Assembly (NCBI GenBank): GCA_964585045.1
Contig: CAZPCF010000002.1
Location: 1 to 34,079 of the forward strand
Reading direction: 5' to 3'
Source of the DNA: an uncultured bacterium
GTDB taxonomy: Bacteria > Omnitrophota > Omnitrophia > Omnitrophales > Aquincolibacteriaceae
DNA: 34,079 nucleotides
A program made the position numbers and the translations under genes. Positions 8,525 to 33,364 of this stretch are shown here, piece after piece. Within the stretch, counting starts at the first letter, position 1, and the number at the start of each line of letters is the position of its first letter. The notes under the pieces are model-generated. The model did not search any database and was not told the origin of the DNA. It saw only the letters and a list, made by a program, of their open reading frames with translations.

Positions 8525-8542
8525 TTTAGCACCTCGGAGATA

Positions 8543-8611
8543 GCTCAACGCGCAAAGCGCAACGCACAACGAAAAGATTTTACATCGCGCATTGAGCGTT
8601 GACCGTTGCGC
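8543..8611. repeat. GC-rich palindromic repeat built from GCGCAACG/CGTTGCGC units (copy B); it fills the hydG-hydE spacer
   Basis: GCTCAACGCGC pairs with GCGCATTGAGC, and GCGCAACGCACAACG pairs with CGTTGACCGTTGCGC. The two pairings are interleaved (X-Y-X'-Y'). The element shares blocks with 6626-6678. Confidence 0.6.
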
Positions 8612-12248: not shown

Positions 12249-12348
12249 CTGCAACCCCCTCCCCGTTTATTACCTCTAGATCTTCACTCTTCTGACTGCA
12301 AGATTTTAACTCAACTTTTAAAAAAAATCTCGGATTTTCCTGAAACTC

Positions 12349-17699: not shown

Positions 17700-17721
17700 C
17701 CGTCGTTCCTCTTTTGGGCCG

Positions 17722-18294
17722 CTAAGCGACGGCCGCAAGCTCCTTCTTTGTTGAGGATTTTTTTTTGCACTGGCCGGTGCATTTCCGATATTTTTTCAGA
17801 ACCCGGCCGACTTTTTCCGGCACCATACGGACATGCACGTCATCGTTGACCTGCATCACAGGCGAAAGGCCGCAACATCCGAGGCAACGGGTGATATCCA
17901 AACTGAACATCCCGTCTGCCGTAACATCACCCTCTTCGATCCCGAGCTCCTTTTTCATTTTCTCCAGGATCCGCGCTCCGCCCCCGACATAACAGGCCGT
18001 TCCTTTGCAAACGTGGATCTTGTTACGCGCCTTAGGTTTCAGGGAAAAATAATTATAAAAAGTTGCCATACCGTAAATGTGCGCCGTGGGAACATCCATT
18101 TTCTCTGAAACAAAATCCATGGCTTCGCGGGAGATGTGTCCAAAGAGTTCCTGGACTTTATGAAGAACACCCATCAGATGTCCTTTTTTGTCCGCTGTCG
18201 GAGGCTTTGCTCTGATGAATCTCTCAAGTTCCTTGAATTTTCCCTGCCATTCATTAGGGATCACTTTTTTTTGAGCGTGAACTTTCATTTTCAT
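17722..18294 (-). CDS. NuoE-like [2Fe-2S] subunit (HydC-type) of the second [FeFe]-hydrogenase, with a Cys-containing basic C-terminal tail
   Basis: VCKGTACYVGG...RCLGCCGLSP is present. The tail is ..KKYRKCTGQCKKKSS. Confidence 0.85.
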   Translation of the reverse strand: MKMKVHAQKKVIPNEWQGKFKELERFIRAKPPTADKKGHLMGVLHKVQELFGHISREAMDFVSEKMDVPTAHIYGMATFYNYFSLKPKARNKIHVCKGTACYVGGGARILEKMKKELGIEEGDVTADGMFSLDITRCLGCCGLSPVMQVNDDVHVRMVPEKVGRVLKKYRKCTGQCKKKSSTKKELAAVA

Positions 18295-20100: not shown

Positions 20101-23100
20101 GACTCCACCTCCACCATTTCTTTGCGGTCGCAGCGTAAACACCGGTCCGCCTCTTCACAAGCCTTTTTCTTGGAATAACACCGCTCCACTTCTTTAAAAG
20201 TCCGGATCCGTTGATGATCCGGTAATCGGGCCGGTTCCGGACGGAAGCGGACAGCCACCTCGGCAGTGGGCTCTACATAGGTTACTTCATGCCGTGTGCC
20301 ACGTATGACAAAGCGATCATGCGCCATATCTTCTCCTTTAAAATAACGATCGATGGAGACTGCCGCCCGCTCACCATCTGCGATCGCTTCCACGACCGTG
20401 GCGCCTCCTGTAACAGCATCCCCCCCGGCAAAGATCCCTGGAATATTCGTCGCCAAAGTCACCGGATCCACTTTCAAAGTGCCTGCTTTGGTCACTTCCA
20501 TGTTTAAATTTTTCGACCTGAACTCGGAAAGCTGCGGTTCGGCCCCGATCGCCATGATCACAACATCCGCGGAAAGGGACACCCTTTCCTCCGTCTGAAC
20601 CGCTTTCCTTCTCCCGCTAAGATCAAATTCTCCCGGCCGCATGCGCACACAATCCAGTTCGGAAACCCTGCCGTCTTTGCCTTTGATCGCTATCGGGTTC
20701 AACAGGAAATGGATCCGGACACCTTCCCGTTCTGCCTCCGCGATCTCTTCCGAAAAAGCCGGCATCGCGTCCTTAGTCCTCCGGTAGACAATATTGACTT
20801 CTTTGGCCCCGTAACGAAGCGCAGTACGGACTACATCGGTTGCCGCATTTCCTCCTCCGACCACCGCTACTTTTTTCCCGGTCAGGACCAGCGGCTCTTT
20901 CCCGGCCGCCATCGCATAAACACCTTTGACCTTTTTCACTTTTGAGGTCCTGCAATATTTTAAAAATATCAGGCTGTTCATGACCCCCGAAAGATCCATG
21001 CCTGGGATCGAAAGCCCTTTTTCCTGCCACGCACCCATCCCGAGAAAGGTCGCCTTGAAACCCTGTTTCTTCAGCTGCTCGAGAGAAATGTCCCGGCCGA
21101 TCCGGACGCCGGTTCTGATCTTCACCCCGGCTTTTTTAATACGCTCAATGTCCCGGTCCAGGATCTTATGCGGCAGCCGGTATTCCGGGATCCCGAGCGC
21201 CAGCATTCCTCCGACAACTTTTTCAGCTTCAAAAACAGTGACTGAGTATCCACGCTTTGCGAGATGATAAGCGCAGGAAAGTCCCGCAGGACCGCTTCCG
21301 ACCACCGCTACCTTTTCGGGACGCTTGGGACCTTCCCAGGTCTTTAGGGGAACGTTGTATTTGTCCGCGTAATCCGCCGCAAACTGCTTGAGCCTCATGA
21401 TCGCGACCGATTCGTCCAATTTCCCGCGACGGCAATTCGCCTCACAGGGATGATGACACACACGGCCACAGACAGAAGGAAGCGGATTACGTTCCAGGAT
21501 CTTTGCCAAACTCTCCCGGATCTTTCCCTGGCGGATCAATCCCACATAGAGTGGGATATCAACATTCACGGGACACGCGTGTTGACAAGAAGCCACGAAT
21601 AATTCACCGCAGACGACCGCAGGACACCGCTTTTCCTTGATATGAGCTTCATACTCACTGCGAAAAAAACGGATCGTTGACAGGACCGGATTCGGAGCTG
21701 TCTGACCCAAACCGCAAAGAGACGTCTTTTTGATCGTATCGCCCAGATCCTGAAGCCGTTCGATATCCCCCGCTTGGCCCTTACCCGCCGTGATCCGGTT
21801 GAGGATCTCAAGCATCCGCTTTGTTCCCTCGCGGCAAGGAGTACATTTTCCGCAAGACTCATCCTGCGTGAATTCAAGAAAGAACCGTGCCACATCCACC
21901 ATGCAATCGGTCTCATCCATCACAATAAGTCCGCCGGAACCCATGATAGAGCCCGCTTCAACCAAAGACTCGTAGTCGACGGGTGTATTCAAATACTGCA
22001 CCGGCAAACAACCGCCGGACGGACCGCCCGTTTGCGCTACTTTGAATCTTTTATCGTCTTTGATCCCCCCGCCGATGTCAAAAATGATCTCTCCCAAAGT
22101 CGTTCCCATAGGTACTTCCACAAGCCCCGTATTCCTGACCTTACCCGCCAAAGCAAAAACCTTTGTTCCTTTGCTTTTCTCAGTCCCGATGGAAGCAAAA
22201 AATTGATACCCGTCCAAAATGATCACAGGAATATTCGCCCACGTTTCGACGTTATTGATCAAAGTGGGCTTCCCCCACAATCCCCTGACGGGCGGATACG
22301 GCGGACGGATCCGAGGCATCCCGCGTTCCCCTTGGATCGAATGGATCAAGGCTGTTTCTTCGCCGCACACAAATGCTCCGGCACCCAACACGATCTCAAT
22401 ATCAAAACAGAAGGAGGTACCAAAAATATTTTTTCCTAAAAGATTATGTTGTCTCGCCTGCCTGATAGCCCCCTTGAGACGTTCGACCGCCAAGGGATAT
22501 TCCGCGCGTATGTAAACGATCCCCTTGCGGGCACCGACGGCAAAACCTCCTATCGTCATAGCCTCGATCACCGAGAAGGGATCCCCCTCGATGGTGCTCC
22601 GGTCCATAAAGGCACCGGGATCCCCTTCATCAGCATTGCAAATAACGTATTTTTCGTCCGCTTGCTGGTCGGCCACATATTTCCACTTGGTCCCCGTTGG
22701 GAAACCGCCCCCTCCGCGTCCCCGCAGCCCGGATTTTGACACTTCGTCGATAACCCGTTCGGGAGAATACTCCGCCAGGACCTTTGCCAAAGCTTCGTAG
22801 CCACGCACACACAAATAATCCTGCAAAGATTCCGGATCGATCACGCCGCAATTCCTGAGTACGATCCTTTTCTGCTTGGTAAAGTAATCGATATCTCCGA
22901 ATATAAAACGTGACTTATCGGTAAGGCAATCCTCGCTCGCGGAATAGTGCTCCCCGTTGGGATGTTTCAGGGGTTTGTTCTTGACCAAATGGTTTAGGAC
23001 TATTTTTTTGGCCAACTTGATATCGACGTTCTCGTATTTGAAGGGAGGCCGCCCTACTTGAAAAACCTCAACGGTCGGCTCCAAATGACAACGCCCCACG

Positions 23101-23306
23101 CATCCCTTTTGCCCGATATGAACGTCCCGGATCTTTCTCCGGGCGATCTCACGCCTGAAAGTTTCCATAACGATCTTGGAGCCGGCTGCGATCTCGCAGG
23201 TCGACATTCCGATGTTGATACGGGTCGACGCGGTCCACTTTTCAATATTTTCGTGAATGGCCTTTTGTTTGATCTTTTTTAGCAATGACCTCGCATCCCC
23301 TGACAT
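20097..23306 (-). CDS. Tripartite fusion of a Trx-like [2Fe-2S] domain, a NuoF-like FMN/NADH module (HydB-type) and a GltD/NfnB-like FAD/NADPH oxidoreductase module (1069 aa)
   Basis: Residues about 1-110 carry MSTCEIAAGS...KGCVGRCHLEP. Residues about 150-590 carry GLRGRGGGGFPTGTKW, ESCGKCTPCREG and LCGLGQTAPNP. Residues about 600-1000 carry CGRVCHHPCEANC, VAVVGSGPAGLSCA, VAVVGGGNAATD and IFAGGDAVTG. The C-terminal tail is ..CEEADRCLRCD. Confidence 0.85.
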   Translation of the reverse strand: MSGDARSLLKKIKQKAIHENIEKWTASTRINIGMSTCEIAAGSKIVMETFRREIARRKIRDVHIGQKGCVGRCHLEPTVEVFQVGRPPFKYENVDIKLAKKIVLNHLVKNKPLKHPNGEHYSASEDCLTDKSRFIFGDIDYFTKQKRIVLRNCGVIDPESLQDYLCVRGYEALAKVLAEYSPERVIDEVSKSGLRGRGGGGFPTGTKWKYVADQQADEKYVICNADEGDPGAFMDRSTIEGDPFSVIEAMTIGGFAVGARKGIVYIRAEYPLAVERLKGAIRQARQHNLLGKNIFGTSFCFDIEIVLGAGAFVCGEETALIHSIQGERGMPRIRPPYPPVRGLWGKPTLINNVETWANIPVIILDGYQFFASIGTEKSKGTKVFALAGKVRNTGLVEVPMGTTLGEIIFDIGGGIKDDKRFKVAQTGGPSGGCLPVQYLNTPVDYESLVEAGSIMGSGGLIVMDETDCMVDVARFFLEFTQDESCGKCTPCREGTKRMLEILNRITAGKGQAGDIERLQDLGDTIKKTSLCGLGQTAPNPVLSTIRFFRSEYEAHIKEKRCPAVVCGELFVASCQHACPVNVDIPLYVGLIRQGKIRESLAKILERNPLPSVCGRVCHHPCEANCRRGKLDESVAIMRLKQFAADYADKYNVPLKTWEGPKRPEKVAVVGSGPAGLSCAYHLAKRGYSVTVFEAEKVVGGMLALGIPEYRLPHKILDRDIERIKKAGVKIRTGVRIGRDISLEQLKKQGFKATFLGMGAWQEKGLSIPGMDLSGVMNSLIFLKYCRTSKVKKVKGVYAMAAGKEPLVLTGKKVAVVGGGNAATDVVRTALRYGAKEVNIVYRRTKDAMPAFSEEIAEAEREGVRIHFLLNPIAIKGKDGRVSELDCVRMRPGEFDLSGRRKAVQTEERVSLSADVVIMAIGAEPQLSEFRSKNLNMEVTKAGTLKVDPVTLATNIPGIFAGGDAVTGGATVVEAIADGERAAVSIDRYFKGEDMAHDRFVIRGTRHEVTYVEPTAEVAVRFRPEPARLPDHQRIRTFKEVERCYSKKKACEEADRCLRCDRKEMVEVES

Positions 23307-23353: not shown

Positions 23354-25189
23354 TCATGCCTTCGGCAATGTAAAAGCAAAAACATTTCCATCCGTCTGGG
23401 GCTCGACCCAAACCTTTCCTCCATGCTTTTCAATGATCTCTTTGATAATAAAAAGGCCCAGGCCCGTCCCCTTAATATGTTCGGACCCCGGCAACCGGGA
23501 AAACCGTTTGAACAGATGTTCTTTTTTCTCTGCCGGGACAGGACAACCTTCATTAAAAAACCGGAATTCAACATCATCCGGCCTGTCCTGGGCCGTCACA
23601 ACGATCTTCCCGCCTTGTTTCCCGTATTTTATGGCATTCCCTAACAAGTTGTTGCAGACGATCCCCAACAGGCTCTTGTCCACGGCAAGTTCAACGCCAG
23701 AGGGAACATGATCTTCAAGATTCATGTTCTTCTCTTGCTTTTGTTTTTCAAAATGCTGGATCGCCGGATGAAGAATGGCCTCTTTGAAAAGGATCTTCTC
23801 TTTTCGTGCCTCGAGTTCTCCTTTTTCGATCCTTGAGAGATCGAGATAATTTTTCACCATGCTTTCAAAGTGGTCCAGGCTTCTGGCCGCCGCATCGATC
23901 GCCTTTTTCTGGGCTGCATTCAACTCTCCCAAATAACCATCTTTCACGGAATAAACATTCATCACAATGGAGCCAAGGATACCCTTCAGCTCATGCGACA
24001 CAAATCCGATCATATCGAGGTAGCTTTTATTTAAGGCCGCCAGTTGTTCATTGGTGATCTTTAAACGAAGCTCCCTTTCTTGAAGCCTGTCTGCCATCTG
24101 GTTGAAAGATTCCGTCAGCTGTCCTATTTCCTTGATCGTTGTATGGACCTGGGCCTTGCTTTGGAGGTCCCCGTGGGCCAACCGTCTGATCGAGTGAAGC
24201 ATATCCAGGAACGAATTTGTCAGGAACCTGGAAAAAACAACGGAGAGGACGATAGCGATCAAGGTAATGCAAGTAATAATGGCGAGAATGGCGAGGAACA
24301 GATTGCGCTGCAATTCCACAAATGGTTTCTCGAGGATCCCGACGTAACGGATGCCAATAATTTTATCCTGGATGTTCTTGATCGGTTCATACGCGGTCAG
24401 ATACCAATCGGTCACTACGAACGCCCGGTCCTGCCACTTTTCCCCTTTTTCGACGACTTTTTTGTAAACGCTATCGGAGACAATAGTGCCGATCGCGCGT
24501 TCCCCGCGATCGTTCAGGACATTGGTCGTAACACGGGTGTCATCAAGAAAAATGGTCACGGTCCCGACGGGTTTCCCTTGGTAAAGTTTTTTCTCGAAAA
24601 TGGTATCGGAGATCTCATCGACTAGTTGAAAATTCTTATTGAAGATCTTCCCGCCGTAAAGAACCCCTGTGATCTCTCCTCCGGGGCCGACAAAGGGTCG
24701 CGCGTATTCAAGACCGATAGCTTTTTCCAGCCACCGGTCCGGGTGCGGGTGCGCTTTCGGCGTTGTTTTGATCTCGATCAATGCTTTTTCGAAATATTCT
24801 TTTCCCATGGAGAGCAGTTCTTCTTTTCCAAGGATCCGCTTCCCTCCCGCCGGCCGATGCGTTGCTACAGCTTTTTGAACGATTTCGCTATGGGACTTGT
24901 TCGCATCGACCGGTGTGATCTGATACAAATAATCCAACCCCAGTATCTTCTTGAGGTCTTCCAGGGAAGTATCAGGCCTCGCAAGAGTGAAAGCCGTTGC
25001 CATTTTCTCAATTTGTTTCTCATAAACAGACGGAATAGCCTTGAGGTTTTGGTTCACCTGCTTTTGGGCCTCGCCCATGATATAGGTCTTAACCACAGAA
25101 AAGCCGAGCACAGACATGGAAATGCTCAAGAGGGCCACCAAAAACAAAAATGACGCCAGAATGCTGGTTCTAAGCTTTATGGGTTTCAT
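23354..25189 (-). CDS. Sensor histidine kinase with TM, periplasmic Cache-type domain, TM, HAMP, HisKA and HATPase_c
   Basis: There are two TM segments. The periplasmic region carries DDTRVTTNV...GERAIGT...AFVVTDWYLTAYEPI (Cache-like). A HAMP domain follows, then H-box FVSHELKG, N-box NLLGNAIKYG and G-box GTGLGLFIIKE. ATG 25189 (SD AGGAG) is preferred over 25213. Confidence 0.85.
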   Translation of the reverse strand: MKPIKLRTSILASFLFLVALLSISMSVLGFSVVKTYIMGEAQKQVNQNLKAIPSVYEKQIEKMATAFTLARPDTSLEDLKKILGLDYLYQITPVDANKSHSEIVQKAVATHRPAGGKRILGKEELLSMGKEYFEKALIEIKTTPKAHPHPDRWLEKAIGLEYARPFVGPGGEITGVLYGGKIFNKNFQLVDEISDTIFEKKLYQGKPVGTVTIFLDDTRVTTNVLNDRGERAIGTIVSDSVYKKVVEKGEKWQDRAFVVTDWYLTAYEPIKNIQDKIIGIRYVGILEKPFVELQRNLFLAILAIITCITLIAIVLSVVFSRFLTNSFLDMLHSIRRLAHGDLQSKAQVHTTIKEIGQLTESFNQMADRLQERELRLKITNEQLAALNKSYLDMIGFVSHELKGILGSIVMNVYSVKDGYLGELNAAQKKAIDAAARSLDHFESMVKNYLDLSRIEKGELEARKEKILFKEAILHPAIQHFEKQKQEKNMNLEDHVPSGVELAVDKSLLGIVCNNLLGNAIKYGKQGGKIVVTAQDRPDDVEFRFFNEGCPVPAEKKEHLFKRFSRLPGSEHIKGTGLGLFIIKEIIEKHGGKVWVEPQTDGNVFAFTLPKA

Positions 25190-25817
25190 GTTGCTCCTGA
25201 CGATCCCATGCATTCACAAAATAAAGGATGGTTTCAAGCTCCCGTCCCAGATTGACATTATGGACCACGAATTTCTCGGGAGTATTCAAGCGAACCGGCG
25301 CAAAATTCAAGACCCCCTTGATCCCCGCGGCCATCATCTGGTCCAACACCTGCTGAGCGACCAACTCGGGAACCGCAAGGATCCCGACCTTGATCTTATT
25401 TTTTTTGATAAAATCTTTGAGCTCTCCGAAGGGCAGCGTCGGCACCTCGGCAGAACGATTTACTTTTTGCTCATCCGTGTCAAAAGCTGCTGCGATGTGA
25501 AGATCACTGGCAAGAAAACCCTTATAGTTCATCAAAGCTCGCCCGATATTGCCGCTTCCGACCACGATCACGGGGTACTTTTTGTCCTTGCCCAAAAGCG
25601 CATCAAGCTTCTGGATCAGCTCATCGATCTGATACCCGCCCCGCTTATTCCCCACGAGACCAAAAAGCGAGAAATCTTTCCGGACCTGTACGGCCGTCGC
25701 CCCGATCGCGTCTGCCATGTTCTCCGAGAAAACCTTCACGAATCCGAGGTATTTAAGACGTAAAAGAGCCTCCCGGTAGCTATAAAGTCGGGTGACGGAG
25801 CTTTTACTGGTTTTCAT
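25170..25817 (-). CDS. rex: Redox-sensing transcriptional repressor Rex (NADH/NAD+ sensor)
   Basis: RLYSYREAL..L......V.S..MA...G....QVRKDFS.FG..G.RG.GY is the winged-helix region, followed by the VVGSGNIGRAL Rossmann motif. SD is GAGGGAAC. A matching operator lies upstream. Confidence 0.85.
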   Translation of the reverse strand: MKTSKSSVTRLYSYREALLRLKYLGFVKVFSENMADAIGATAVQVRKDFSLFGLVGNKRGGYQIDELIQKLDALLGKDKKYPVIVVGSGNIGRALMNYKGFLASDLHIAAAFDTDEQKVNRSAEVPTLPFGELKDFIKKNKIKVGILAVPELVAQQVLDQMMAAGIKGVLNFAPVRLNTPEKFVVHNVNLGRELETILYFVNAWDRQEQHETHKA

Positions 25818-25951: not shown

Positions 25952-26665
25952 TTACAGACCGAGGAAACGTATCGCTAGGCCGCAAAGGAGAATCGTGCCG
26001 CCGGCCATGGCGTGCATATAGCGTTCAAACAACTTCAAGGGAAGGAGCTGGATGCCCCACCGGGTGACGGCTACCAGGGTCATCATGGTCGCGATGGTCA
26101 CCGTACCAAAGGCTGTGGCAACCCAGAATACACCGATCAGATTGCTCCTGGCCGCCGGATACATCACAAGCGGAATAAGCGGTTCGCACGGGCCGAACAC
26201 AAAGATCGTGAAAAGGATCCATGGCGTCAGGCTGGGTTCTTCTTTGCGGGTATGAAGATGGGCATGACCTTCCTGATGGACATGGGTATGCCGGTGAACT
26301 TCCCCATCGGCATGGACGTGCAAATGGACGTGCGGCTTATTCTGGACCGCCTTCCGGATCCCCCAGACCATGTAAAGAAGCCCGAAAGCGATCAAAAGCC
26401 ATGCCGCGATCTCCCCGCGCTGGGATTCGATGAACTCTAGCTTCGAAACCGCGATCCCACAAACGATTCCCACGAAACCGAGTACGACCGAACTCAGGAT
26501 ATGCCCCACCCCGCAAAGGAATGTAACCCCCATGGTTTTCCCGAGGGACCAGTTCCTAGCTTTGGAGATAACGGTAAAGGGAACGTAATGGTCGGGCCCT
26601 ACAAGTGTGTGAATGAACCCCAAGGAAGCGGCCGTAACGGTCAGAAGCCCTAGGCTGTGTTCCAT
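25952..26665 (-). CDS. Nickel/cobalt transporter (NiCoT/NicO-superfamily-like membrane protein with a His-rich loop)
   Basis: Polytopic membrane protein. HTLVGPDH resembles the HX4DH Ni/Co signature. The central loop HVHLHVHADGEVHRHTHVHQEGHAHLH is His-rich. Context with hyp genes supports the call. The exact family is not certain. Confidence 0.6.
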   Translation of the reverse strand: MEHSLGLLTVTAASLGFIHTLVGPDHYVPFTVISKARNWSLGKTMGVTFLCGVGHILSSVVLGFVGIVCGIAVSKLEFIESQRGEIAAWLLIAFGLLYMVWGIRKAVQNKPHVHLHVHADGEVHRHTHVHQEGHAHLHTRKEEPSLTPWILFTIFVFGPCEPLIPLVMYPAARSNLIGVFWVATAFGTVTIATMMTLVAVTRWGIQLLPLKLFERYMHAMAGGTILLCGLAIRFLGL

Positions 26666-26679
26666 AACTAAAACCTCTC

Positions 26680-27981
26680 CTATTTTGCCCCAAGATCCGT
26701 GGGCGCACGACCCAGGGAACCGAGGAGCGCTACTGTCTCATCGATCTGTGTTTGGATCAATTCACTCTTCCCCGCACGATCGGGATAGATCGCATATTTC
26801 TCCCGGTATTGGAGCGGTGTGACATTCAGCATCACAGAATTTCCGCCGGCAATAAGCCCTTTCCGCCTGGCGTCTTTGCTCAGAGTTTCAAAGGCTGTAG
26901 TGATCAGCACACGGGCTTCCGTCGGCTCCACAAGCCTTGCGCCAGCGATAACCTTGAGCATTTCGTTTTCGGTTACCGGTTTCAAACCGCCAAGCGGCGT
27001 CCCGGGACTCGGGAGAAAGGGTCCAAAACTGAACATCTCGGCGTGCAATTCCCTGGTTAGATAAAGATCATTCACGACATCTTCAAGCGTCTGGCCCGGC
27101 AGCCCGACCAGCCCCCCGGTAATGATAAGATAACCCATCTCATAGGCTTTTCGGAGATGCTCCAGACGAGTCGCAAGCATCTGGCCCGGATGCAATTCCG
27201 AATAAAGCTCCGGATTGGACGTCTCAAAACGCATAAGAAGTCCGCGGGCGCCCGCGTCATAAAGCCGTTTGAGATTATCGATCCCGATCTCTCCGAAACT
27301 GATAAAAATGAGCGCCGGGAACTCATGCTTGATCGTCCGGATGATCTCCTCAAGCTCCTCCACGGAATAACCCGGGTCTTCCCCGCTCTGGAGCACAAGC
27401 GCCTTGAACCCGTAGCGCTCGACCGCCTCTTTGGCCGCCGCAAGGATTTCTTCTTTTGCCATTCGGTATCGTGGCAGCGTCTTATGATGAAGCGAAATAC
27501 CGCAGTAGTGGCAGCCTTGCTTGCAATAATTCGAGATCTCGAGAATGCCGTGCACACAACAAGCGTTTTTGAGATATTTTTGACGGAGGAAGTTGGCTGT
27601 CTTGAAAATAAGTTCTAGATGCGCCGGATCGTTGGAGCGGATAAGCTGAAGAAGTTCTTCTTTTTCAGGCGGCCTCCCTTCCATGACCCGATCAAGGACC
27701 CGCGCCGTCTTTGGTTCGATGCCCTTCATTTCGAGGTCTATTCGGGAAAGCCGAAGGTCCACTTCCTGGAGCTCAAAAAAAGTCTCTTTCCAAACGTGAA
27801 GGATTTCTTCCGCTTCGCGGGCGGGAAGTTTTTCGATAACGTAACCGCCTTGGGCATAAACGTAATCGCCGACCCCAAGGCCGTCGATCTCGTTATGCGC
27901 TTTGCGTTCTTCTCCGAAGTAATCAACGAGGACGGTTTTTTCCAGGATCTCTTTCACCTTTCCGGGAATGGCGTAGCACAT
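26680..27981 (-). CDS. Fusion of an N-terminal HypC/HupF-type [NiFe]-hydrogenase Fe chaperone domain with a full-length HydE-like radical-SAM enzyme
   Basis: The N-terminus MCYAIPGKVKEI..VDYFG......I......GDYV..QGGYVIEKL matches the HypC signature with Cys2. It is followed by ILEISNYCKQGCHYCGISLHHKTLPRYRM..EEI, VLQSGEDP and GGNSVMLNVTPLQYREKYAIY, which parallel HydE motif for motif. The ORF is a single uninterrupted 433-aa frame. Confidence 0.8.
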   Translation of the reverse strand: MCYAIPGKVKEILEKTVLVDYFGEERKAHNEIDGLGVGDYVYAQGGYVIEKLPAREAEEILHVWKETFFELQEVDLRLSRIDLEMKGIEPKTARVLDRVMEGRPPEKEELLQLIRSNDPAHLELIFKTANFLRQKYLKNACCVHGILEISNYCKQGCHYCGISLHHKTLPRYRMAKEEILAAAKEAVERYGFKALVLQSGEDPGYSVEELEEIIRTIKHEFPALIFISFGEIGIDNLKRLYDAGARGLLMRFETSNPELYSELHPGQMLATRLEHLRKAYEMGYLIITGGLVGLPGQTLEDVVNDLYLTRELHAEMFSFGPFLPSPGTPLGGLKPVTENEMLKVIAGARLVEPTEARVLITTAFETLSKDARRKGLIAGGNSVMLNVTPLQYREKYAIYPDRAGKSELIQTQIDETVALLGSLGRAPTDLGAK

Positions 27982-27986
27982 GGACG

Positions 27987-28229
27987 TTAATCGGCGTCGA
28001 AGGAAACGAGCCGGAGTTCACGAGTCGGGCTTTTCTCGATTTCAAGCACCGCGCCTTCAAGCGGCGTGCCCTGGCTGTGGGATTCGAAAAAATAGCGGAG
28101 GATCTCTTCATTGATCTCGGTAAAAGTACCCATACGAAGATAAACTTTCGTGACACGGGAAACGCTGTGCTCCTTGGTGCGGTTCAGGATGTCTTGGTGA
28201 AGATCTTTGATCACGTGCATCTCATGCAT
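27987..28229 (-). CDS. hypA: HypA-like nickel metallochaperone lacking the Zn-finger domain (80 aa)
   Basis: The N-terminal MHE Ni-binding motif is present, and MHEMHVIKDL...RVTKVYLRMGTF...L.F.F aligns to the E. coli HypA N-domain. None of the CxxC...CxxC Zn-site cysteines are present. The last strand (LRLVSFDAD) directly follows the first half. Confidence 0.65.
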   Translation of the reverse strand: MHEMHVIKDLHQDILNRTKEHSVSRVTKVYLRMGTFTEINEEILRYFFESHSQGTPLEGAVLEIEKSPTRELRLVSFDAD

Positions 28230-28251: not shown

Positions 28252-28291
28252 CTTAGGGGACAAGTATTATTTGACTGCCTGTCCCCTAAAG
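28252..28291. repeat. Copy 3 of the GGGGACA...TGTCCCC hairpin element (opposite orientation to copy 1); it overlaps the endopeptidase stop codon
   Basis: TTAGGGGACA (28253-28262) pairs perfectly with TGTCCCCTAA (28280-28289), with a 17-nt loop. Its reverse complement aligns to 297-335. Confidence 0.7.
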
Positions 28292-28768
28292 ATGTGCAAA
28301 ATTTCTTTTAATAACATCCACGATCTCGTCCGCCGTTTGCCGCACTTCAGGAGAAAGTCCTTCTCCCAAAGTTACGGTCTTCGGCTGGATGCCGATAAAA
28401 ATGATCTTGGCACCCGTGCTTTCCGTGATGAGCCGCGATACCACATTCATGGGGACCATGTGCGTCGTAAGGGTGGTTTCCGGAATGGCCTCCTCCGAAA
28501 TCACCCGAACCTCGCCGGGTTTTCCGCCGAAATCCGCAGCATCCAGGATGATCACCCTCGAAGGTTTCAGTTCAGTCGCCTCATCGATAATATTCTCCGG
28601 CGTTTGTCCGGCATCGAGAAGCCTGACCGGAAGATCCATCAGAAAAGAAGCGAGATAGGATCCGACCCCATCATCGCTGCGAAAAGGATTCCCGACCGTC
28701 AGGAAAAGATCGAGGCCTTGACCGGGTTTCAGAACGTCGAGAACGTCACCGGTTAACGAATTTGACAT
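28286..28768 (-). CDS. [NiFe]-hydrogenase maturation endopeptidase (HycI/FrhD/HoxW family)
   Basis: LTVGNPFRSDDGVGSYLA is the GNxxxxDDGxG motif, together with ILDAADFG. It lies immediately downstream of the large subunit, overlapping its 3' end. Confidence 0.85.
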   Translation of the reverse strand: MSNSLTGDVLDVLKPGQGLDLFLTVGNPFRSDDGVGSYLASFLMDLPVRLLDAGQTPENIIDEATELKPSRVIILDAADFGGKPGEVRVISEEAIPETTLTTHMVPMNVVSRLITESTGAKIIFIGIQPKTVTLGEGLSPEVRQTADEIVDVIKRNFAHL

Positions 28769-30071
28769 TCAGGAAGTGCGCGGAGCAGGAAATGCAGGGG
28801 TCGTAAGCACGAACAAGCATTTCAAGAAGTAGCGTGATCTCCTCGTCCGTCTTTTCCAGGATCTCGGGGACAAGCTTTTTCATGTCATGCTCGATATTAT
28901 TGATGTTCTGTCCCGTAGGAATGATGCAATTTGCATTCATGATCATGCCCCTGGCGTCGACTTCATAATTATGAAAGAGGATCCCCCGGGGCACTTCCAC
29001 GGCGCCAACACCATTCCCGGGATGAACTTTAATCCTCCCGGTCTCATTAAGACCCACCACCACGGCCTCGCTTTGATCAACGCCCTTTTTCTTGAACTCC
29101 TCAAGGATCCGGATCGCATCTTCAAGGCAGTGAACACATTCGATCAACTGAGCTGCGGTATTAAGATAAGGGTTCTTCACGATCCCCTTCATCCCGATGG
29201 CATCCGCTACAGCCTTGGCCTTGGGGTGAAGCTTTTTCTGGTTCAGATTGAAACGAGCGAGCGCGCCCGCCATATAAGAATCACGGTTCGCTTTACAAAA
29301 TTTCGCCGAGGAATGCGAGACAATAAATTCGTTCGTCACCTGTCTGTAATCTTTTTTCTTCCAGCGCTTGCCGTCCGTGGAGCCTATGTCGCCTTCGAGG
29401 AACGGATATTCGTCCGTATCGTTCACGAGAGCGATATATTCGGTCTCACGTTCGAACTGGGGGAATTTGAGCGTCGCGGCCAGCTTCACGGTCTCATCCA
29501 TATCGGGACGCATTTTATAAAGAATGTCGAGCATCGCGTCGAGGTCTTTTTCACGCGGAAGTTTCGTAAAGCCTCCCACGATCGAAGAGATCGGGTGGAC
29601 ATGACGTCCCACAAGAACGTCACAAACGTCATTACACCACTTCTTCATCCGGAGTGCACGGCGTACGACCTCATTGTGGGTGTTGATAAGCGGAACAAAG
29701 CTCTTCACGCCAAGAAGGTCCGGGGCCACCAGAAGATAGATATGAAGGATATGGCTGTCCAGTGTCTCCATGTGGAGAAGGAATTTCCTGAGCTCTGTGG
29801 TCTGTTTGGAAGGTTTGAAGCCTATCGCATCCTCAGCGGCCTGGATAGAGGCCAAGGTATGCCCGCAGGAGCAAATGCCGCAAATGCGGCAGGTGATGTG
29901 CTGGGCCTCAAAGATCGAACGGCCTCGGATCATGCCCTCAAAAAAACGCGGCGATTCGATGATGTCCAGTTCGCACTTTTCGAGCACGCCGTCTTTCACG
30001 TTCACGACAATGTTGCCGTGCCCCTCGACGCGCGTTAAATACTCGACATTGACATTAATGTTGCGGCCCAT
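28746..30071 (-). CDS. [NiFe]-hydrogenase large (alpha) subunit, group 3b-like
   Basis: The N-terminus has RVEGHG and RICGICSCGH (RxCGxCxxxH). The C-terminus has DPCISCSAH followed by a 9-aa cleavable extension. At 441 aa it has no long insertions, which is typical of group 3. Confidence 0.9.
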   Translation of the reverse strand: MGRNINVNVEYLTRVEGHGNIVVNVKDGVLEKCELDIIESPRFFEGMIRGRSIFEAQHITCRICGICSCGHTLASIQAAEDAIGFKPSKQTTELRKFLLHMETLDSHILHIYLLVAPDLLGVKSFVPLINTHNEVVRRALRMKKWCNDVCDVLVGRHVHPISSIVGGFTKLPREKDLDAMLDILYKMRPDMDETVKLAATLKFPQFERETEYIALVNDTDEYPFLEGDIGSTDGKRWKKKDYRQVTNEFIVSHSSAKFCKANRDSYMAGALARFNLNQKKLHPKAKAVADAIGMKGIVKNPYLNTAAQLIECVHCLEDAIRILEEFKKKGVDQSEAVVVGLNETGRIKVHPGNGVGAVEVPRGILFHNYEVDARGMIMNANCIIPTGQNINNIEHDMKKLVPEILEKTDEEITLLLEMLVRAYDPCISCSAHFLNVKFVNR

Positions 30072-30816
30072 GAGACTCCTTTGTATCCTGCTCTCGCGCC
30101 TTGTTGTACATGTTCATTTTGTTCGCGATCCATTCGACGGGGATCTTGTATTTGGCAAGCACGTCCTTCGCCCCATTCTCGGCCGGATTGGTCACCATGC
30201 CCCGGCACCCGTAGCAAATGTTGTTGTTGTTCACGCACCAGGAATTGCAACCGGCCCGCGTCACCGGCCCCAGGCAGGTCAACCCCTTGTCATACATGCA
30301 TTCGTTCTCGTTCAGTTTACATTCGACACAGACCGCATTATCGGGTACCCGGTAAGGAATGCCCGCGAGAGCACATTTGAGGACTTTCACGAATTCGGGC
30401 AAATAGACGGGGCAGCCGTGCACAAAATAATCGACCGGAACGACCTGGGGAACCGAACGCGTCGGGATGGTATCAAAATACTTCGCCGCTTTTTGATAAA
30501 CATAGTTGCGAATATCATCAAGCTCGAAATTATTCTTCATGCCGTTCACGCCGCCGATCGTGGCGCAGGAACCGTAGGCGATCAGGACCTTGGCCTTCTC
30601 GCGGATCTTCTTGATACGTTCCATATCATGGGAAGTCGTGATGCTGCCTTCCACGATCGCCACATCGTATTCACCCTTTTCCGACATCACTTCCCGGAAC
30701 TCTACCACATCGATCGCACCCAGCACGTCCAGTAGCATCTCTCCCATATTCGCCACCTGGAGCTGGCATCCTTCGCAACACGCAAAATCAAAAAAAGCAA
30801 CTCTCGGTTTTCCCAT
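30055..30816 (-). CDS. [NiFe]-hydrogenase small (delta) subunit, group 3b-like, no Tat signal
   Basis: MGKPRVAFFDFACCEGCQ and GSCATIGG are present, with distal cluster Cys motifs (GCNSWC.., CYGC). ATG 30816 lies 2 nt after the gamma-subunit stop. Confidence 0.85.
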   Translation of the reverse strand: MGKPRVAFFDFACCEGCQLQVANMGEMLLDVLGAIDVVEFREVMSEKGEYDVAIVEGSITTSHDMERIKKIREKAKVLIAYGSCATIGGVNGMKNNFELDDIRNYVYQKAAKYFDTIPTRSVPQVVPVDYFVHGCPVYLPEFVKVLKCALAGIPYRVPDNAVCVECKLNENECMYDKGLTCLGPVTRAGCNSWCVNNNNICYGCRGMVTNPAENGAKDVLAKYKIPVEWIANKMNMYNKAREQDTKESHGPQH

Positions 30817-30818
30817 GA

Positions 30819-31652
30819 TCAAAGCGCCTCGATGTTGTGTCTGATGTCTGCGTAAGTAAAAACGGGACCATCTTGACAACAATAATGGTCACCGATCTGG
30901 CAGTGCCCGCATTTCCCGACCCCGCACTTCATGTGCCGCTCCAGTGACAAAATGATCTGGTTATCCGGGATCTCGCGTTTCAGGAGTTCCTGGATCACAA
31001 ATTTATACATAATGGGCGGTCCCACTACGACCGCATAGGTCTTTTTAGGATCGATCTTCACGTCCGGGATGAGCTTGGTGATCAATCCGACCTTCCCCTT
31101 CCAACCCGGCCCCCCGCGATCCACGGTCATATCCATAAAAACGTTCGGTTTTTTTACCCATTCGTCGAATTCTTCCTTAAAAAGCATCATTTCGGGAGAT
31201 TTGCACCCCATCAGAATATTGACCGTTCCGAAACGTTCCCGGTTATCCAGAACGAAAGTGATCAAAGAATGAAGCGGAATGGTCCCACAACCTCCTCCGA
31301 TCATCAGAAGGTCTTTCCCCTTGAGAAGGTCTTCCGGGAACCCTTTTCCGAAAGGACCGCGGATCCCCACAATGTCTCCCTCTTTCATACCGTGCAGGGC
31401 AACCGTCACGACTCCCGCCCGGCGGACCACAAGTTCAAAAGCCCCTTTTTTATTGGGGGAAGAGGAGACGGAAATCGGAGCTTCCCCGACGCCCGGAATA
31501 GAGATCATCACGAACTGACCCGGTTGGTGACCGAGATCTTCCCCGTTCGGAAGCCGGATCTCGAAATATTTTTCCAGATCCGTCAGCTGACGGGTACGGA
31601 TCAGTGTTGCAGCTTTGACCTCATACGACGAATGGACGGAGAGGGTCATCAT
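30819..31652 (-). CDS. Hydrogenase gamma subunit: FAD/NAD(P)-binding ferredoxin-reductase-like protein with a C-terminal [2Fe-2S] site
   Basis: GQFVMISIPGVGEAPISV is the FAD-binding barrel and GGGCGTIPL is the NAD(P) site. The C-terminal motif is CGVGKCGHCQ. The ATG overlaps the beta-subunit stop (ATGATGA). Confidence 0.8.
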   Translation of the reverse strand: MMTLSVHSSYEVKAATLIRTRQLTDLEKYFEIRLPNGEDLGHQPGQFVMISIPGVGEAPISVSSSPNKKGAFELVVRRAGVVTVALHGMKEGDIVGIRGPFGKGFPEDLLKGKDLLMIGGGCGTIPLHSLITFVLDNRERFGTVNILMGCKSPEMMLFKEEFDEWVKKPNVFMDMTVDRGGPGWKGKVGLITKLIPDVKIDPKKTYAVVVGPPIMYKFVIQELLKREIPDNQIILSLERHMKCGVGKCGHCQIGDHYCCQDGPVFTYADIRHNIEAL

Positions 31653-32704
31653 GATCTCGGCTCCTTGGCCAAGGCGTTGATCGTTTCTTTCAGACTGATC
31701 CCAGCCATGCAAGTCCGCGTGCAACGGCCACAACCAGTGCAGGTATAACGTTTGAACTTTCCGACAGGATAATTAAACTTGCGCATGTAGCGGTGCCGCT
31801 GACGCTTGCCGCGTTCTTCTCTAAAATTCTCTCCGCCCGCAACTCGGGCGAAATCCTCGTTCTGGCAGCCGTCCCAAACACGGTAACGGAACCCGGTTTT
31901 GAGATCAAGGCTCAACTCATCGCGAACGTCGAAACAATAGCAGGTGGGACACACATTCGTACAGTTTCCGCAAGAAAGGCAACGCCCCTGAAGATCTTCC
32001 CAAACTTTGCTTTCAAAAGACCGTTCGAAAAGCGGCTTCAAGTCCTCGTATTTGACGGAGACTTCGGGTTTGAAGATCTTTTCTTTTTTCTTCCGGAGCT
32101 CTTCCAGTTTTTTCTGCGCCGAATCCCCCACCGCCGTGAAAAGCCCGGTTTCCTTCACAAGCGCCTCGCCTGCCGGGGTACCGACCTGAACCATAAAAAT
32201 ATCCCCGAGATCCGTCAAAAAAAGGTCGTAACCTTCCGAAGGCAAGTGGTTCTTCATAACCGTACAGCTGGCGTACTCATCGCAATAGTCATTGCACTCC
32301 AGGCCGATCAAAACGAGTTTTTTCCTGCGCTCGGAGTAATTCACATCCTTGGGCTCGGCTTCCATCACCGTGTTCAGGAACTGGATCCCGGAAAGGTCGC
32401 AGGTATGAACCCCGAAGATCACCGTTTCCCTCTCCGTCTCAACGATGGGATCCCATCGATGGGCCACCTTGTCAAAGGCTTGGATCATTTCGTACTGCGG
32501 CATGAAATATTTCTTGGGAGAAAGCACCGTGGGCACGTACGTAAGGCAGATCTCCTGAGCGGAGGTCACGGGCTCGAAAGCAAAGTTCTTTTGACCGCGT
32601 TTGACCGGAGCCACAACCTGCCGTTTGATGGAAAGTTTTGAGATCAGGTTATTCAGATCTGTTTTTTTTAGAATGGCACTCGAACTCACGAAGAAACCTT
32701 TCAA
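31649..32704 (-). CDS. Hydrogenase beta subunit: AsrA-like 4Fe-4S protein (sulfhydrogenase beta)
   Basis: CLSCGNCTNVCPTCYC and CTGCGRCTRTC are present. The gene order beta-gamma-delta-alpha is identical to the Pyrococcus sulfhydrogenase operon. The start is uncertain (TTG 32704 or GTG 32689). Confidence 0.75.
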   Translation of the reverse strand: MKGFFVSSSAILKKTDLNNLISKLSIKRQVVAPVKRGQKNFAFEPVTSAQEICLTYVPTVLSPKKYFMPQYEMIQAFDKVAHRWDPIVETERETVIFGVHTCDLSGIQFLNTVMEAEPKDVNYSERRKKLVLIGLECNDYCDEYASCTVMKNHLPSEGYDLFLTDLGDIFMVQVGTPAGEALVKETGLFTAVGDSAQKKLEELRKKKEKIFKPEVSVKYEDLKPLFERSFESKVWEDLQGRCLSCGNCTNVCPTCYCFDVRDELSLDLKTGFRYRVWDGCQNEDFARVAGGENFREERGKRQRHRYMRKFNYPVGKFKRYTCTGCGRCTRTCMAGISLKETINALAKEPRS

Positions 32705-32817: not shown

Positions 32818-33270
32818 TCAATTCCCGTAAATGTTTAAAAACTGGATCCTGGTTGCTTCCAGACGCTGGGCAACGATCTTCATGATCTTTTTCATCAATT
32901 CATAACCAAAATCATGATCTTCTTCGCATTTTTTTCTGAGATATTTTCCGTCTAGCGCAATAACCCGTGCATCTTTTATCACCCGGCAATTAAAATGAGC
33001 CCTGTAGGGCGGGAAGAGCCAGGACCACCCCAGGAGATCATTTCCTTGAAGTGTTTCGATCACGGCGGGTTTGCTAGTATGGAGAATCTCGATTGCCACC
33101 AAACCATCCCGAATAATATGGAGGTGATCCACTTCCTGCCCCTCTTTAAAAATGACCGATCCCGCTTTAAAGTCTACGAGCGATGCACAACCAGCCAGAA
33201 TATCCAAATGCTCCTGCTTCAGGTCTTTAAAAAAAGGGTGCTCTCTGAGAACGAGTCCGATCTTTTCCAT
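32818..33270 (-). CDS. Stand-alone cyclic-nucleotide-binding (CAP effector-domain) protein without an HTH
   Basis: HPFFKDL..EHL..L......V.F.AG..IF.EG...D.L..I..G.V.I is the cNMP-binding beta-barrel. The protein has only about 150 aa. ATG 33270 is preceded by GGAGGAAA. Confidence 0.75.
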   Translation of the reverse strand: MEKIGLVLREHPFFKDLKQEHLDILAGCASLVDFKAGSVIFKEGQEVDHLHIIRDGLVAIEILHTSKPAVIETLQGNDLLGWSWLFPPYRAHFNCRVIKDARVIALDGKYLRKKCEEDHDFGYELMKKIMKIVAQRLEATRIQFLNIYGN

Positions 33271-33364
33271 GGGCTTTCCTCCGTTATTCATTAGCGCCTG
33301 TGTCTACCACCGACTCCCGTCATAGATTTTTGAGACTCTTTTGAACTATCCATTAAGCCGGAGC

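Follow-up and report, generated by a model that had tools for sequence, protein, structure and literature searches.

According to current reviews, every [NiFe]-hydrogenase owes its cofactor to a set of six Hyp proteins, and the source of the CO ligand under anaerobic conditions ranks as the most pressing open question in the field. Within this set, a conserved His of HypC (H51 in E. coli) is needed for cofactor content, and a review suggests that it may coordinate the Fe held by the HypC–HypD complex (PMC12134894). On the [FeFe] side, the reference is HydE of Thermotoga maritima (TmHydE), in which the thioether of Met224 holds an Fe(CO)2CN species. In product site S3, this species adjoins the exit towards HydF, and mutating the one threonine and two arginines of the site impairs maturation (PMC10114646). 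Met291 is the relay methionine of the same enzyme, and R54, T134 and R155 contact the CN ligands (PMC11826987); these three residues would be the threonine and two arginines of the described S3 site. An earlier sequence-only reading of the DNA considered here stated that no characterised HypC–radical-SAM fusion was known, and the openly searchable literature agrees: no description of such a fusion, or of HydG in [NiFe] maturation, was found there.

The window, that is, the whole stretch of 34,079 nucleotides that was analysed, carries such a fusion on its minus strand, at 26680–27981. It is a single open reading frame of 433 amino acids plus stop, whose ATG is the earliest start codon after the in-frame stop upstream. 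The sequence-only reading had reported an uninterrupted frame with a HypC domain followed by a full-length HydE-type radical-SAM enzyme (here HydE'). Open reading frame, Pfam and NCBIfam analyses all confirm that description, and every quoted motif is present: MCYAIPGKV (residues 1–9), ISNYCKQGCHYCG (Cys153, Cys157 and Cys160), RYRMAKEEI, LQSGEDP and GGNSVMLNVTPLQYREKY. Pfam HupF_HypC matches residues 1–64 at 48.2 bits against a gathering cut-off of 28.5, and Radical_SAM matches residues 148–304 at 73.8 bits, with a weak match to BATS. An exact look-up of the protein in a contig index gave no match. The AlphaFold2 (AF2) model has a pLDDT of 92.2 and a pTM of 0.92, which for a two-domain protein is consistent with a defined domain arrangement. 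Between the domains lies a linker (residues 55–91; 27709–27819, minus strand) with a long conserved helix (WKETFFELQEVDLRLSR), predicted at residues 54–79, and a loop. The linker is shortened in a second branch of the family, where the alignment places a deletion in P0133, P0137, P0138 and P0140.

The HypC domain (PF01455; residues 1–64; 27790–27981, minus strand) has an invariant M1, C2 (27976–27978) and P6. Cys2 directly follows the initiator Met at the true N-terminus, as the free N-terminal Cys of HypC does, and 134 of 147 members of the second branch start with MC..P. AF2 predicts strands at residues 6–13, 16–21, 24–29, 40–44 and 47–52, followed by the helix at 54–79 (block pLDDT 79–94 over residues 1–60); the prediction matches the OB-type beta-barrel and C-terminal helix of HypC. 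The domain reaches 39.6 bits with the NCBIfam HypC model TIGR00074, against a cut-off of 48. At the position of the conserved His of canonical HypC, the fusion has Q44 (27850–27852): 'VIVHTGF' or 'VLIHIGF' in Thermococcus kodakarensis HypC (2z1c, 3vyr) and in 3d3r aligns with 'VYAQGGY' in the fusion. None of 136 further family members has a His at this position, which is occupied by A, I, T, Q or S instead.

The remainder of the protein is a HydE-like radical-SAM (beta-alpha)8 barrel (residues 92–428; 26698–27708, minus strand). Phmmer aligns it with TmHydE chains over residues 92–428 at E=1.3e-60, with PylB in the PDB following at 4e-26, and Foldseek superposes the AF2 model on TmHydE with an rmsd of 1.5 A and a target TM of 0.92–0.96. 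NCBIfam HydE (TIGR03956) matches residues 97–405 at 240.4 bits, slightly below its cut-off of 254.6. Other family members straddle that cut-off (P0121, 243.3; the distant P0137, 263.9), so that some distant members lie above it. PylB, BioB and HmdB were rejected as identities on their scores of 145 bits (cut-off 348), 111 bits (225) and 69 bits (321). The placement of the radical-SAM domain that the sequence-only reading had recommended thus comes out as HydE-type by NCBIfam scores, phmmer and Foldseek alike.

Conservation across the barrel is selective. The CX3CX2C cluster motif (Cys153/Cys157/Cys160; 27502–27525) is invariant in 119/119 family members, as are the equivalents of TmHydE Met224 (Met316; 27034–27036) and of the relay methionine Met291 (Met384; 26830–26832), all on the minus strand. 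In TmHydE numbering, the invariant or nearly invariant set comprises CX3CX2C, QSGE, R159, E161, R180, T268, T269, A270, L157, V105, M224 and M291. The three S3 positions, also encoded on the minus strand, have been replaced. His144 (27550–27552) stands at the position of Arg54, which is His in 119/119 family members and Arg in 112/118 other HydE representatives; the family alignment further shows Phe226 (27304–27306) replacing Thr134 and Gly247 (27241–27243) replacing Arg155. The change from R54/T134/R155 to H/F/G(A) is found in 119/119 family members and in 23/23 representatives fused to HypC; the second branch has it in 129 of 147 members, while R-T-R is retained in 101 unfused HydE representatives. 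With the signature columns removed, and with P0198, a Y-Y-G sequence outside the clade, left out, the H-F-G type forms one clade in 149/200 neighbour-joining bootstraps. In this sequence comparison, the radical-SAM part forms a clade of its own inside HydE.

The genomic setting in the window is a [NiFe] one. Four group-3b-like hydrogenase genes (28746–32704) share the minus strand with the fusion and with genes for HycI, a HypA-like protein and a His-rich membrane protein. The large subunit (28746–30071) has RICGIC, DPCISCSAH and a 9-aa C-terminal extension, and is presumed to be the client of the fusion. Its top NCBIfam matches are sulfhydrogenase alpha subunits, in keeping with the group 3b-type hydrogenase recognised by the sequence-only reading. 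The small (delta), gamma (FAD/NAD) and beta (Fer4_22) subunits of this 3b-type enzyme occupy 30055–32704. Of the further neighbours named in that reading, the endopeptidase stands, as a HycI-type maturation protease (28286–28768) that scores 120.7 bits with TIGR00142, above its cut-off. The HypA-like gene (27987–28229) also stands, in a reduced form: its 80-aa product has the MHE Ni-binding N-terminus and matches positions 1–69 of the 112 in the PF01155 profile, so that it consists of the N-terminal Ni domain only, with no Zn-finger domain and no Zn-site cysteines. Its stop codon lies 5 nt upstream of the fusion ATG, and 80-aa, Cys-poor HypA orthologues occur in at least 12 loci. The Ni transporter stands only as a candidate. 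The 237-aa membrane protein directly downstream of the fusion (25952–26665) has no NCBIfam match, no Pfam match even at E<=1, and only a His-rich loop; it is kept after the fusion in three other loci (L001, L011 and L040) and is possibly a metal transporter.

The window also encodes two [FeFe] hydrogenases, and the canonical HydE, HydG and HydF reported by the sequence-only reading were located at 7478–11355, about 18 kb from the fusion (378, 466 and 500 bits, respectively). The HydG gene (8612–10096, minus strand; TIGR03955, 465.9 bits) is the only one in the window, and its product would supply the Fe(CO)2(CN)(Cys) synthon to the fusion while being shared with the [FeFe] pathway. HypB, HypD, HypE and HypF had been described as absent from the window, and tblastn with the E. 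coli queries was likewise empty.

The same architecture occurs in hundreds of protein clusters. More than 120 lie at 61–89% identity, clustering at 50% identity adds about 20 further representatives, and a second branch accounts for 1276 matches at E<=1e-40. Source names cover Omnitrophota, Nitrospirota, Planctomycetota (anammox bacteria, including Ca. Kuenenia and Ca. Wunengus), Deltaproteobacteria/Thermodesulfobacteriota, and Patescibacteria. Gene linkage was compared between 37 dereplicated fusion loci (504 kb) and 40 control loci with a standalone hypC, in a view of 10 kb to either side of each gene. HypD, HypE and HypF occur in none of the 37 fusion loci in this view. Within 5 kb, HypD is found in 0/37 fusion loci versus 22/40 controls (Fisher p = 1.2e-8). 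HydG shows the opposite pattern, being present in 18/37 fusion loci, and within 5 kb in 16/37 versus 0/40 controls (Fisher p = 9e-7). A [NiFe] large subunit is encoded on 25/37 fusion loci (17 3b-like and 8 group 4), within 5 kb in 19. The co-occurrence proposed as a check by the sequence-only reading is therefore found, with the fusion in or beside [NiFe] operons of groups 3b and 4, and HydG at no more than 5 kb in 16 of the 37 loci. Among the fusion loci that extend 5 kb or more to either side, six have no HydG within 5 kb of the fusion, and the same is true of the Kuenenia locus L108 and of the window.

Individual loci show how close this association can become. Triple fusions of HypC, HydE' and HydG form 17 clusters of 881–946 aa. 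The contigs that encode them are independent and reach 1.5 Mb in length, and each triple fusion adjoins a [NiFe] hydrogenase. Elsewhere, the order is hypA-hypB-[hypC-hydE']-hydG (L047), the fusion and HydG stand alone as a pair (L109), or an unfused H-F-G HydE' has a [NiFe] large subunit on one side and HydG on the other. Orthologues of the window HydG (87–93% identical) directly follow the fusion in L005 and L006, and follow the fusion and membrane protein in L001. In L006/L017, a cassette of group-4 hydrogenase, HycI, HypA and fusion abuts a HydG 93% identical to that of the window; HydF is missing from the locus and HydE is reduced to a 36-aa remnant, a natural deletion. The fusion-adjacent HydG proteins carry canonical CX3CX2C and CX2CX22C motifs, or a CX5CX19C variant that has been reported for Clostridium HydG. 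These motifs are canonical or already reported and give the fusion-adjacent HydG no special feature, so that the idea of a motif-defined HydG subtype dedicated to the fusion was dropped.

Because it travels with HydG and [NiFe] genes in several phyla, the fusion probably marks an undescribed route of Fe-CO/CN assembly. The reading we prefer, with a fair degree of confidence, is that the fusion serves as scaffold and carrier in a HydG-dependent route to the Fe-CO/CN half of the [NiFe] cofactor. The sequence-only reading had proposed an extra HydE paralogue recruited to [NiFe] maturation and acting on a HypC-borne Fe-CO/CN unit, and all in-silico tests that were run agree with it. It had left two routes side by side, of which the diversion of a HydG-made synthon is favoured over a stand-alone CO route. 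The sequences show how the protein is built, which residues it conserves, how its clade is structured and which genes it is linked to; we infer the substrate, the transfer of the fragment to Cys2, and that HypD, HypE and HypF are replaced.

In the proposed sequence of events, HydG would cleave tyrosine and release the [Fe(Cys)(CO)2(CN)] synthon, as is established for HydG. By analogy with TmHydE, the upper pocket of HydE' would bind the synthon, and the 5'-deoxyadenosyl radical would strip the cysteine backbone, leaving an HS-Fe(CO)2(CN)-type fragment on the Met316/Met384 relay. With S3, which in canonical HydE retains the fragment and forms the exit to HydF, rebuilt (R54H, T134F, R155G), the mononuclear fragment would instead pass to the free Cys2 of the tethered HypC. 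HypC may then dock on its cognate apo-large subunit and insert the Fe unit, after which the short HypA, together with HypB where present, would add Ni and HycI would trim the C-terminus, both as in the canonical pathway. Two difficulties attach to this scheme. The HydG synthon has two CO and one CN, the [NiFe] site has one CO and two CN, and an extra exchange of CO for CN must therefore be assumed. Moreover, both methionines implicated in dimer formation by HydE are kept, and so the product of HydE' can only tentatively be called mononuclear. The most far-reaching form of the proposal, in which HydG and HypC-HydE' make up a complete, HypD/E/F-independent Fe(CN)2(CO) pathway that draws both CO and CN from tyrosine in the five named phyla, is plausible, although we lean slightly against it.

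A more conservative explanation confines the fusion to an auxiliary role, supplying CO, or CO and one CN, to HypD, HypE and HypF encoded elsewhere in the genome, as an anaerobic counterpart of HypX. HydG and HydE' would load Fe-CO onto HypC, followed by docking to HypD and cyanation by HypE. This arrangement would ease the CO/CN stoichiometry problem and speaks to an anaerobic CO origin that remains open in the literature for the Hyp pathway. Some Hyp components do occur together with the fusion, HypA or HypB being encoded beside it in L044, L047 and L108. In addition, KO tables of Seymour et al. (2023), read for about three genomes, list hypA/C/D/E/F in at least one genome from the Omnitrophota. 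A second genome in these tables has an [FeFe] hydrogenase together with HydE/HydG-type KOs, and neither genome is tied there to the fusion. However, HypD, HypE and HypF are never encoded within 10 kb in 37+4 fusion loci, whereas in more than half of the control loci these genes lie beside a standalone hypC. The missing His is the very residue proposed as a possible Fe ligand on the HypC–HypD complex, and HydE' and HydG in L047 occupy exactly the place of hypD/E. An auxiliary role is improbable, if still the most serious competitor to the HydG-dependent scaffold and carrier.

It is less probable again that the fusion builds a non-standard ligand set, such as a site of the Fe(CO)2(CN) type, or carries out sulfur or thiocyanate chemistry on Cys2, which would set these [NiFe] enzymes chemically apart from textbook ones. 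The HydG synthon is itself Fe(CO)2(CN), HydE chemistry is known from the literature to act on cysteine sulfur, and S3, the 'chalcogen site', has been rebuilt. The adjacent large subunits nevertheless keep the canonical RxCGxC and DPCxxCxxH motifs in 30/30 cases.

We regard it as very unlikely that the fusion is no more than an additional HydE for [FeFe] maturation, with its HypC-like OB fold a generic carrier and its [NiFe] neighbours incidental. The two [FeFe] hydrogenases and the HydE/F/G set in the window would fit such a role, as would the conserved upper-cavity residues and methionines, and PGAP often names the family 'HydE'. Against it, the fusion lies within [NiFe] operons of two groups in several phyla, with HydF in 2/37 loci and an [FeFe] hydrogenase in 2/37, and S3, on the exit path to HydF, is abolished. 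L006/L017 keep the fusion and HydG in a locus without HydF and with only the remnant of HydE, and the N-terminal domain scores above the Pfam cut-off for HypC and bears the MCxxxP signature. Finally, an assembly, frameshift or gene-calling artefact joining hypC and radical-SAM genes can be set aside, since the clusters counted above keep the architecture: nothing beyond its rarity in characterised organisms speaks for an artefact, while the homologue searches suggested by the sequence-only reading recover the fused form across phyla, with the identical frame in hundreds of independent assemblies, one a closed genome (CP070797.1), and a conserved linker helix.

If the far-reaching, HypD/E/F-independent form of the proposal is true, two supposedly separate hydrogenase maturation systems would be cross-wired, and the anaerobic origin of CO would be answered for the fusion-bearing lineages. 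Under the preferred reading, the six-Hyp rule would have a natural exception, and a widespread one, in the HypC-HydE' family, where the protein, its partner HydG and its client are all defined and clonable, opening the question of CO and CN origin to direct experiment. A minimal gene set for heterologous production of a [NiFe]-hydrogenase is suggested, comprising HydG, one fusion protein, the short HypA and sometimes HycI. The preferred reading would also explain the 'HydE' and 'HydG' names that PGAP assigns in [NiFe] loci without a nearby [FeFe] hydrogenase or HydF, for example, in Patescibacteria. Database names for the family are inconsistent (HydE, HydG, biotin synthase, HypC), and [FeFe] maturation may therefore be over-predicted.

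Compared with HypC, HybG and HupF, the fusion shares the PF01455 domain, the MCxxxP start, the predicted beta-barrel and helix, and the company of hydrogenase, endopeptidase and HypA. Different fusion variants go with 3b and group-4 enzymes, recalling the client specificity of HypC and HybG. Unlike these chaperones, it is covalently joined to an enzyme, lacks the conserved His, falls below the TIGR00074 cut-off, and is without the adjacent HypD of standalone hypC (0/37 versus 22/40). HydE of T. maritima (TM1269; PDB 3IIZ/7O1O) resembles HydE' in its (beta-alpha)8 fold, its CX3CX2C motif, an identity of about 35–40%, the checked upper-cavity residues (R159, E161, R180, T268/T269/A270) and the M224/M291 relay, and probably also in its partnership with HydG. 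HydE' differs in having no auxiliary-cluster cysteine triad, mostly R in place of K309, H/F/G in S3, a separate clade and a score below the TIGR03956 cut-off, as well as in its N-terminal HypC and its linkage to [NiFe] rather than [FeFe] or HydF genes.

PylB, BioB and HmdB, of the HydE-like radical-SAM subgroup, share the barrel superfamily with HydE', but their scores are far lower. HypE and HypF, which derive CN from carbamoyl phosphate, and HypX, which derives CO aerobically from formyl-THF, serve the same presumed end, diatomic ligands on Fe. They belong to unrelated families, however, and none is encoded near the fusion, whereas the precursor in the HydE' route would be tyrosine, supplied via HydG. 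A precedent for joining maturases in one polypeptide comes from the [FeFe] side, with P0141, a HydE-HydG protein that has the canonical R-T-R, and with the algal HydEF. These fusions stay within the [FeFe] system, while the triple fusions described here add HypC and the H-F-G site.

The HypC-HydE-like radical-SAM fusion is encoded at 26680-27981 (-) as one uninterrupted frame of 433 aa, as the sequence-only reading had claimed, and all of the motifs quoted there are found in it. No other start codon lies between the upstream in-frame stop and its ATG, which makes Met1-Cys2 the true N-terminus. In Pfam, HupF_HypC matches aa 1-64 with 48.2 bits (cut-off 28.5) and Radical_SAM matches aa 148-304. 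The top NCBIfam model is HydE, with 240.4 bits over aa 97-405, slightly under its cut-off of 254.6; the NCBIfam scores for PylB (145), BioB (111) and HmdB (69 bits) fall far below this, and these identities were rejected. NCBIfam release 20 contains no dedicated model for the fusion, and the PGAP and IMG labels for its family vary (HydE, HydG, HypC, 'radical SAM protein', 'biotin synthase').

By sequence and predicted fold, the radical-SAM half is a HydE. Thermotoga maritima HydE (TmHydE) matches aa 92-428 with E=1.3e-60 (phmmer; 4e-26 for PylB), and an AF2 model of the fusion (pLDDT 92.2, pTM 0.92) superposes on TmHydE at 1.5 A, with a target-normalised TM of 0.92-0.96. When the TmHydE residues discussed in the literature were mapped onto 119 fusion-family members, the SAM-cluster cysteines, QSGE, R159, E161, R180, L157, V105, T268, T269, A270, M224 and M291 were invariant or nearly so. 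These include M224, which holds the Fe(CO)2CN species at the product site S3, and M291, which relays it there (PMC10114646, PMC11826987). Without exception, the same members replace R54 with H, T134 with F (rarely C) and R155 with G or A. Together with T269, these three residues contact the CN ligands of the product in a QM/MM study (PMC11826987). A structural review places S3 close to the exit towards HydF and assigns it one Thr and two Arg, mutants of which are impaired in maturation (PMC10114646); we infer that these are the R54, T134 and R155 of the QM/MM study. The auxiliary-cluster cysteines are missing as well; the canonical HydE of the window has R-T-R and all three of these cysteines.

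Among the 150 best representatives, H-F/C/I/Y-G/A is found in 23 of 23 HypC-fused proteins and R-T-R in 101 unfused ones. In a 140-sequence neighbour-joining tree, 22 sequences of the H-F-G type group together as a single clade, here named HydE' (bootstrap 149/200 with the three signature columns taken out). Its only strong discriminators among barrel positions are 54 and 134.

In the HypC half, which is predicted to form a barrel of five strands and a long helix, M1, C2 and P6 are invariant. According to a 2025 review, C2 of HypC is essential, and the conserved H51 is needed for activity and may ligate Fe in the HypC-HypD complex (PMC12134894). The alignment puts Gln44 ('VYAQGGY') where solved structures have the conserved His ('VIVHTGF', 'VLIHIGF'), and none of 136 further family members has a His at this position. 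Thus, the domain has kept the cysteine that acts as carrier and lacks the residue linked to HypD.

In the window, transcription runs from four group-3b-like hydrogenase genes through HycI, a HypA-like gene and the fusion to a His-rich membrane protein, and further downstream to Rex, a Cache histidine kinase, two [FeFe]-hydrogenase modules and HydF-HydG-HydE. The sequence-only reading was right about the surroundings of the fusion and about the absence of hypB, hypD, hypE and hypF, as tblastn with the E. coli proteins gave zero matches in the window. Its HypA is only the 80-aa Ni-binding N-terminal domain (27987-28229 (-)), which begins MHE and contains no cysteine, and therefore has no Zn site. 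At least 12 Omnitrophota loci have this form beside the fusion, and L047 and L108 have full-length HypA (114 aa) there (L-numbers denote collected loci around the fusion or its relatives). The supposed Ni transporter was not borne out by any family match: the 237-aa membrane protein (25952-26665 (-)), with its His-rich loop (HVHLHVHADGEVHRHTHVHQEGHAHLH), has zero Pfam or NCBIfam matches even at E<=1. It is kept directly 3' of the fusion in L001, L011 and L040, and is a candidate metal (possibly Ni) transporter of an undescribed family.

Elsewhere in the window, HydG (8612-10096 (-)) carries the auxiliary-cluster motif C406-x5-C412-x19-C432 rather than the canonical CX2CX22C; the identical variant has been reported for a Clostridium autoethanogenum HydG (PMC9431212). 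Across 20097-23306 (-), 23354-25213 (-) and 25170-25817 (-), a 1069-aa NuoF-like plus GltD-like fusion adjoins an [FeFe] hydrogenase, preceded by the Rex repressor and the Cache-domain kinase; this block also lies 3' of the fusion in L013. Three single-domain response regulators (11862-12254, 16877-17260 and 17316-17738 (-)) sit among the [FeFe]-hydrogenase genes, and a small cNMP-binding-domain protein (32818-33291 (-)) lies 5' of the 3b operon.

Gene linkage was assessed from 41 fusion loci (GTDB genomes supplied 12, JGI metagenomes about 25 and contig look-ups the rest), with about 40 standalone-hypC loci from the same metagenome scan as controls. For annotation, all loci were compared by tblastn with the E. 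coli Hyp proteins and those of the window. Counts compare 37 dereplicated fusion loci (504 kb) with 40 controls. HypD occurs in 0/37 fusion loci and within 5 kb in 22/40 controls (p=1.2e-8), HypE in 0/37 and 9/40, and HypF in 0/37 and 16/40 (control counts within 5 kb); four later loci (L106-L109) also lack all three. Since these genes were found in controls at 35-50% identity, the E. coli queries work on diverse metagenomic DNA. HydG, in turn, is present in 18/37 fusion loci, in 16/37 within 5 kb and often 0-150 bp away, against 0/40 controls (p=9e-7). A [NiFe] large subunit occurs in 25/37 (17 3b-like, 8 group 4), with 19/37 within 5 kb against 4/40 controls. The corresponding figures are 15/37 and 2/40 (within 5 kb) for HycI, 14/37 and 0/40 for short HypA, and 2/37 and 0/40 for HydF. 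RxCGxC is present in 30/30 large subunits of the collected loci that bear a C-terminal DPCxxCxxH.

Individual loci display these associations directly. L047 reads hypA-hypB-[hypC-hydE']-hydG, with genes abutting or overlapping; the fusion-HydG pair stands by itself in L109 and is interleaved with 3b subunits in L107 (Falkowbacteria), and an unfused H-F-G HydE' lies between the [NiFe] large subunit and HydG in L023 and L024. Furthermore, 17 clusters of 881-946 aa are single HypC-HydE'-HydG polypeptides (HydG 607-631, HydE 348-371, HypC 46-51 bits), with source names from Nitrospirota and Omnitrophota. They adjoin a [NiFe] hydrogenase each time, in independent contigs of 294 kb and 589 kb and a closed 1.52-Mb Omnitrophota genome. 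In L019 (Nitrospirota-type), a second cNMP-binding-domain protein (9440-9895) separates HycI from the triple fusion.

The organism of L006/L017 is closely related to that of the window (HydG 93% identical, PGM-ManC-BacA-RlmI synteny in common). Here, a cassette of group-4 hydrogenase, HycI, HypA and fusion lies directly 5' of HydG, and the locus has no HydF and no intact HydE. The last 36 codons of HydE persist just 3' of HydG (12915-13022), as if [FeFe] maturation genes had been deleted here and HydG spared. Because this fusion shares only 69% identity with that of the window, the comparison suggests that each hydrogenase type may have its own HypC-HydE' variant, by analogy with HypC and HybG in E. 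coli.

Some loci show other unusual arrangements. The [NiFe] large subunit and HycI endopeptidase of L010 (~4245-6020) seemingly share one 622-aa frame, ordered DPCISCATH, extension and protease domain, so the protease would appear to be joined to its own substrate. The large subunits of L107 and L022 (Patescibacteria-type) stop exactly at DPCxxCxxH, without a C-terminal extension, and no HycI gene lies near them, which suggests maturation without an endopeptidase. In L108 (a Ca. Kuenenia MAG), a type I restriction-modification system separates the fusion from hypA-hypB and a 66-aa large-subunit fragment, and may have inserted into what was once a maturation operon; HydG is absent within 10 kb of this fusion.

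HydG produces [Fe(Cys)(CO)2(CN)], whose sulfur HydE attacks with a 5'-deoxyadenosyl radical. M224 holds the resulting HS-Fe(CO)2(CN)-type species at S3, where it may dimerise before it exits towards HydF (PMC11826987, PMC10114646). HypC, for its part, carries the Fe unit to the large subunit on Cys2 (PMC12134894). HydE' probably makes such a fragment, which the tethered Cys2 passes to the [NiFe] large subunit. HydE' would run the upstream chemistry of canonical HydE, its rebuilt S3 exit would hand a mononuclear fragment to Cys2, and the HypC domain would deliver it to the cognate apo-large subunit, with Ni insertion and then proteolysis following as usual. Retention of both methionines casts doubt on a mononuclear product. 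This route also entails a ligand mismatch, as two CO and one CN from HydG must become one CO and two CN.

Alternatively, the fusion could be an auxiliary supplier of CO to HypCDEF machinery encoded at a distance. This is rather unlikely: it agrees with all of the data apart from the missing His51 equivalent, the L047 operon and the fact that HypD is never linked to the fusion (0/37 loci). A hydrogenase with non-standard ligands, or one modified in some other way, is a still less likely reading. A plain [FeFe] HydE paralogue is highly improbable, as it conflicts with the linkage statistics, with the loss of the S3 site and with the L006/L017 locus.

An artefact, which the sequence-only reading had named as grounds for abandoning the fusion, is virtually inconceivable, as both domains share one protein in more than 120 clusters at 61-89% identity (word-indexed search), whose named members are mostly Candidatus Omnitrophota. 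When 1.84 billion cluster representatives were scanned exhaustively, about 20 more fused ones came to light, down to ~40% identity. A search seeded with the distant member from L047 revealed a second large branch (1276 matches at E<=1e-40), with source names from Deltaproteobacteria/Thermodesulfobacteriota, Planctomycetes (including Ca. Kuenenia and Ca. Wunengus) and Patescibacteria (including Falkowbacteria and Portnoybacteria). Taxon names are the labels that sources attach to MAGs. The fusion is not an artefact, and is not limited to one phylum.

Recent reviews treat HypA-F as universal and the anaerobic source of CO as an open question. Searches of the openly accessible full-text literature turned up no description of HydG acting in [NiFe] maturation, nor of a HypC-radical-SAM fusion, in line with the sequence-only reading, which knew of none characterised. 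Being both surprising and directly testable, the proposal is of high interest. The fusion would act as a HydE with a HypC attached, yet it fails tests that define each of these families. Unlike HydE, it falls under the equivalog cut-off and lacks the S3 residues and linkage to HydF/HydA; unlike HypC, it falls under the TIGR00074 cut-off and lacks the conserved His and linkage to HypD. The fusion can be described as a cross between the two hydrogenase maturation systems known so far.
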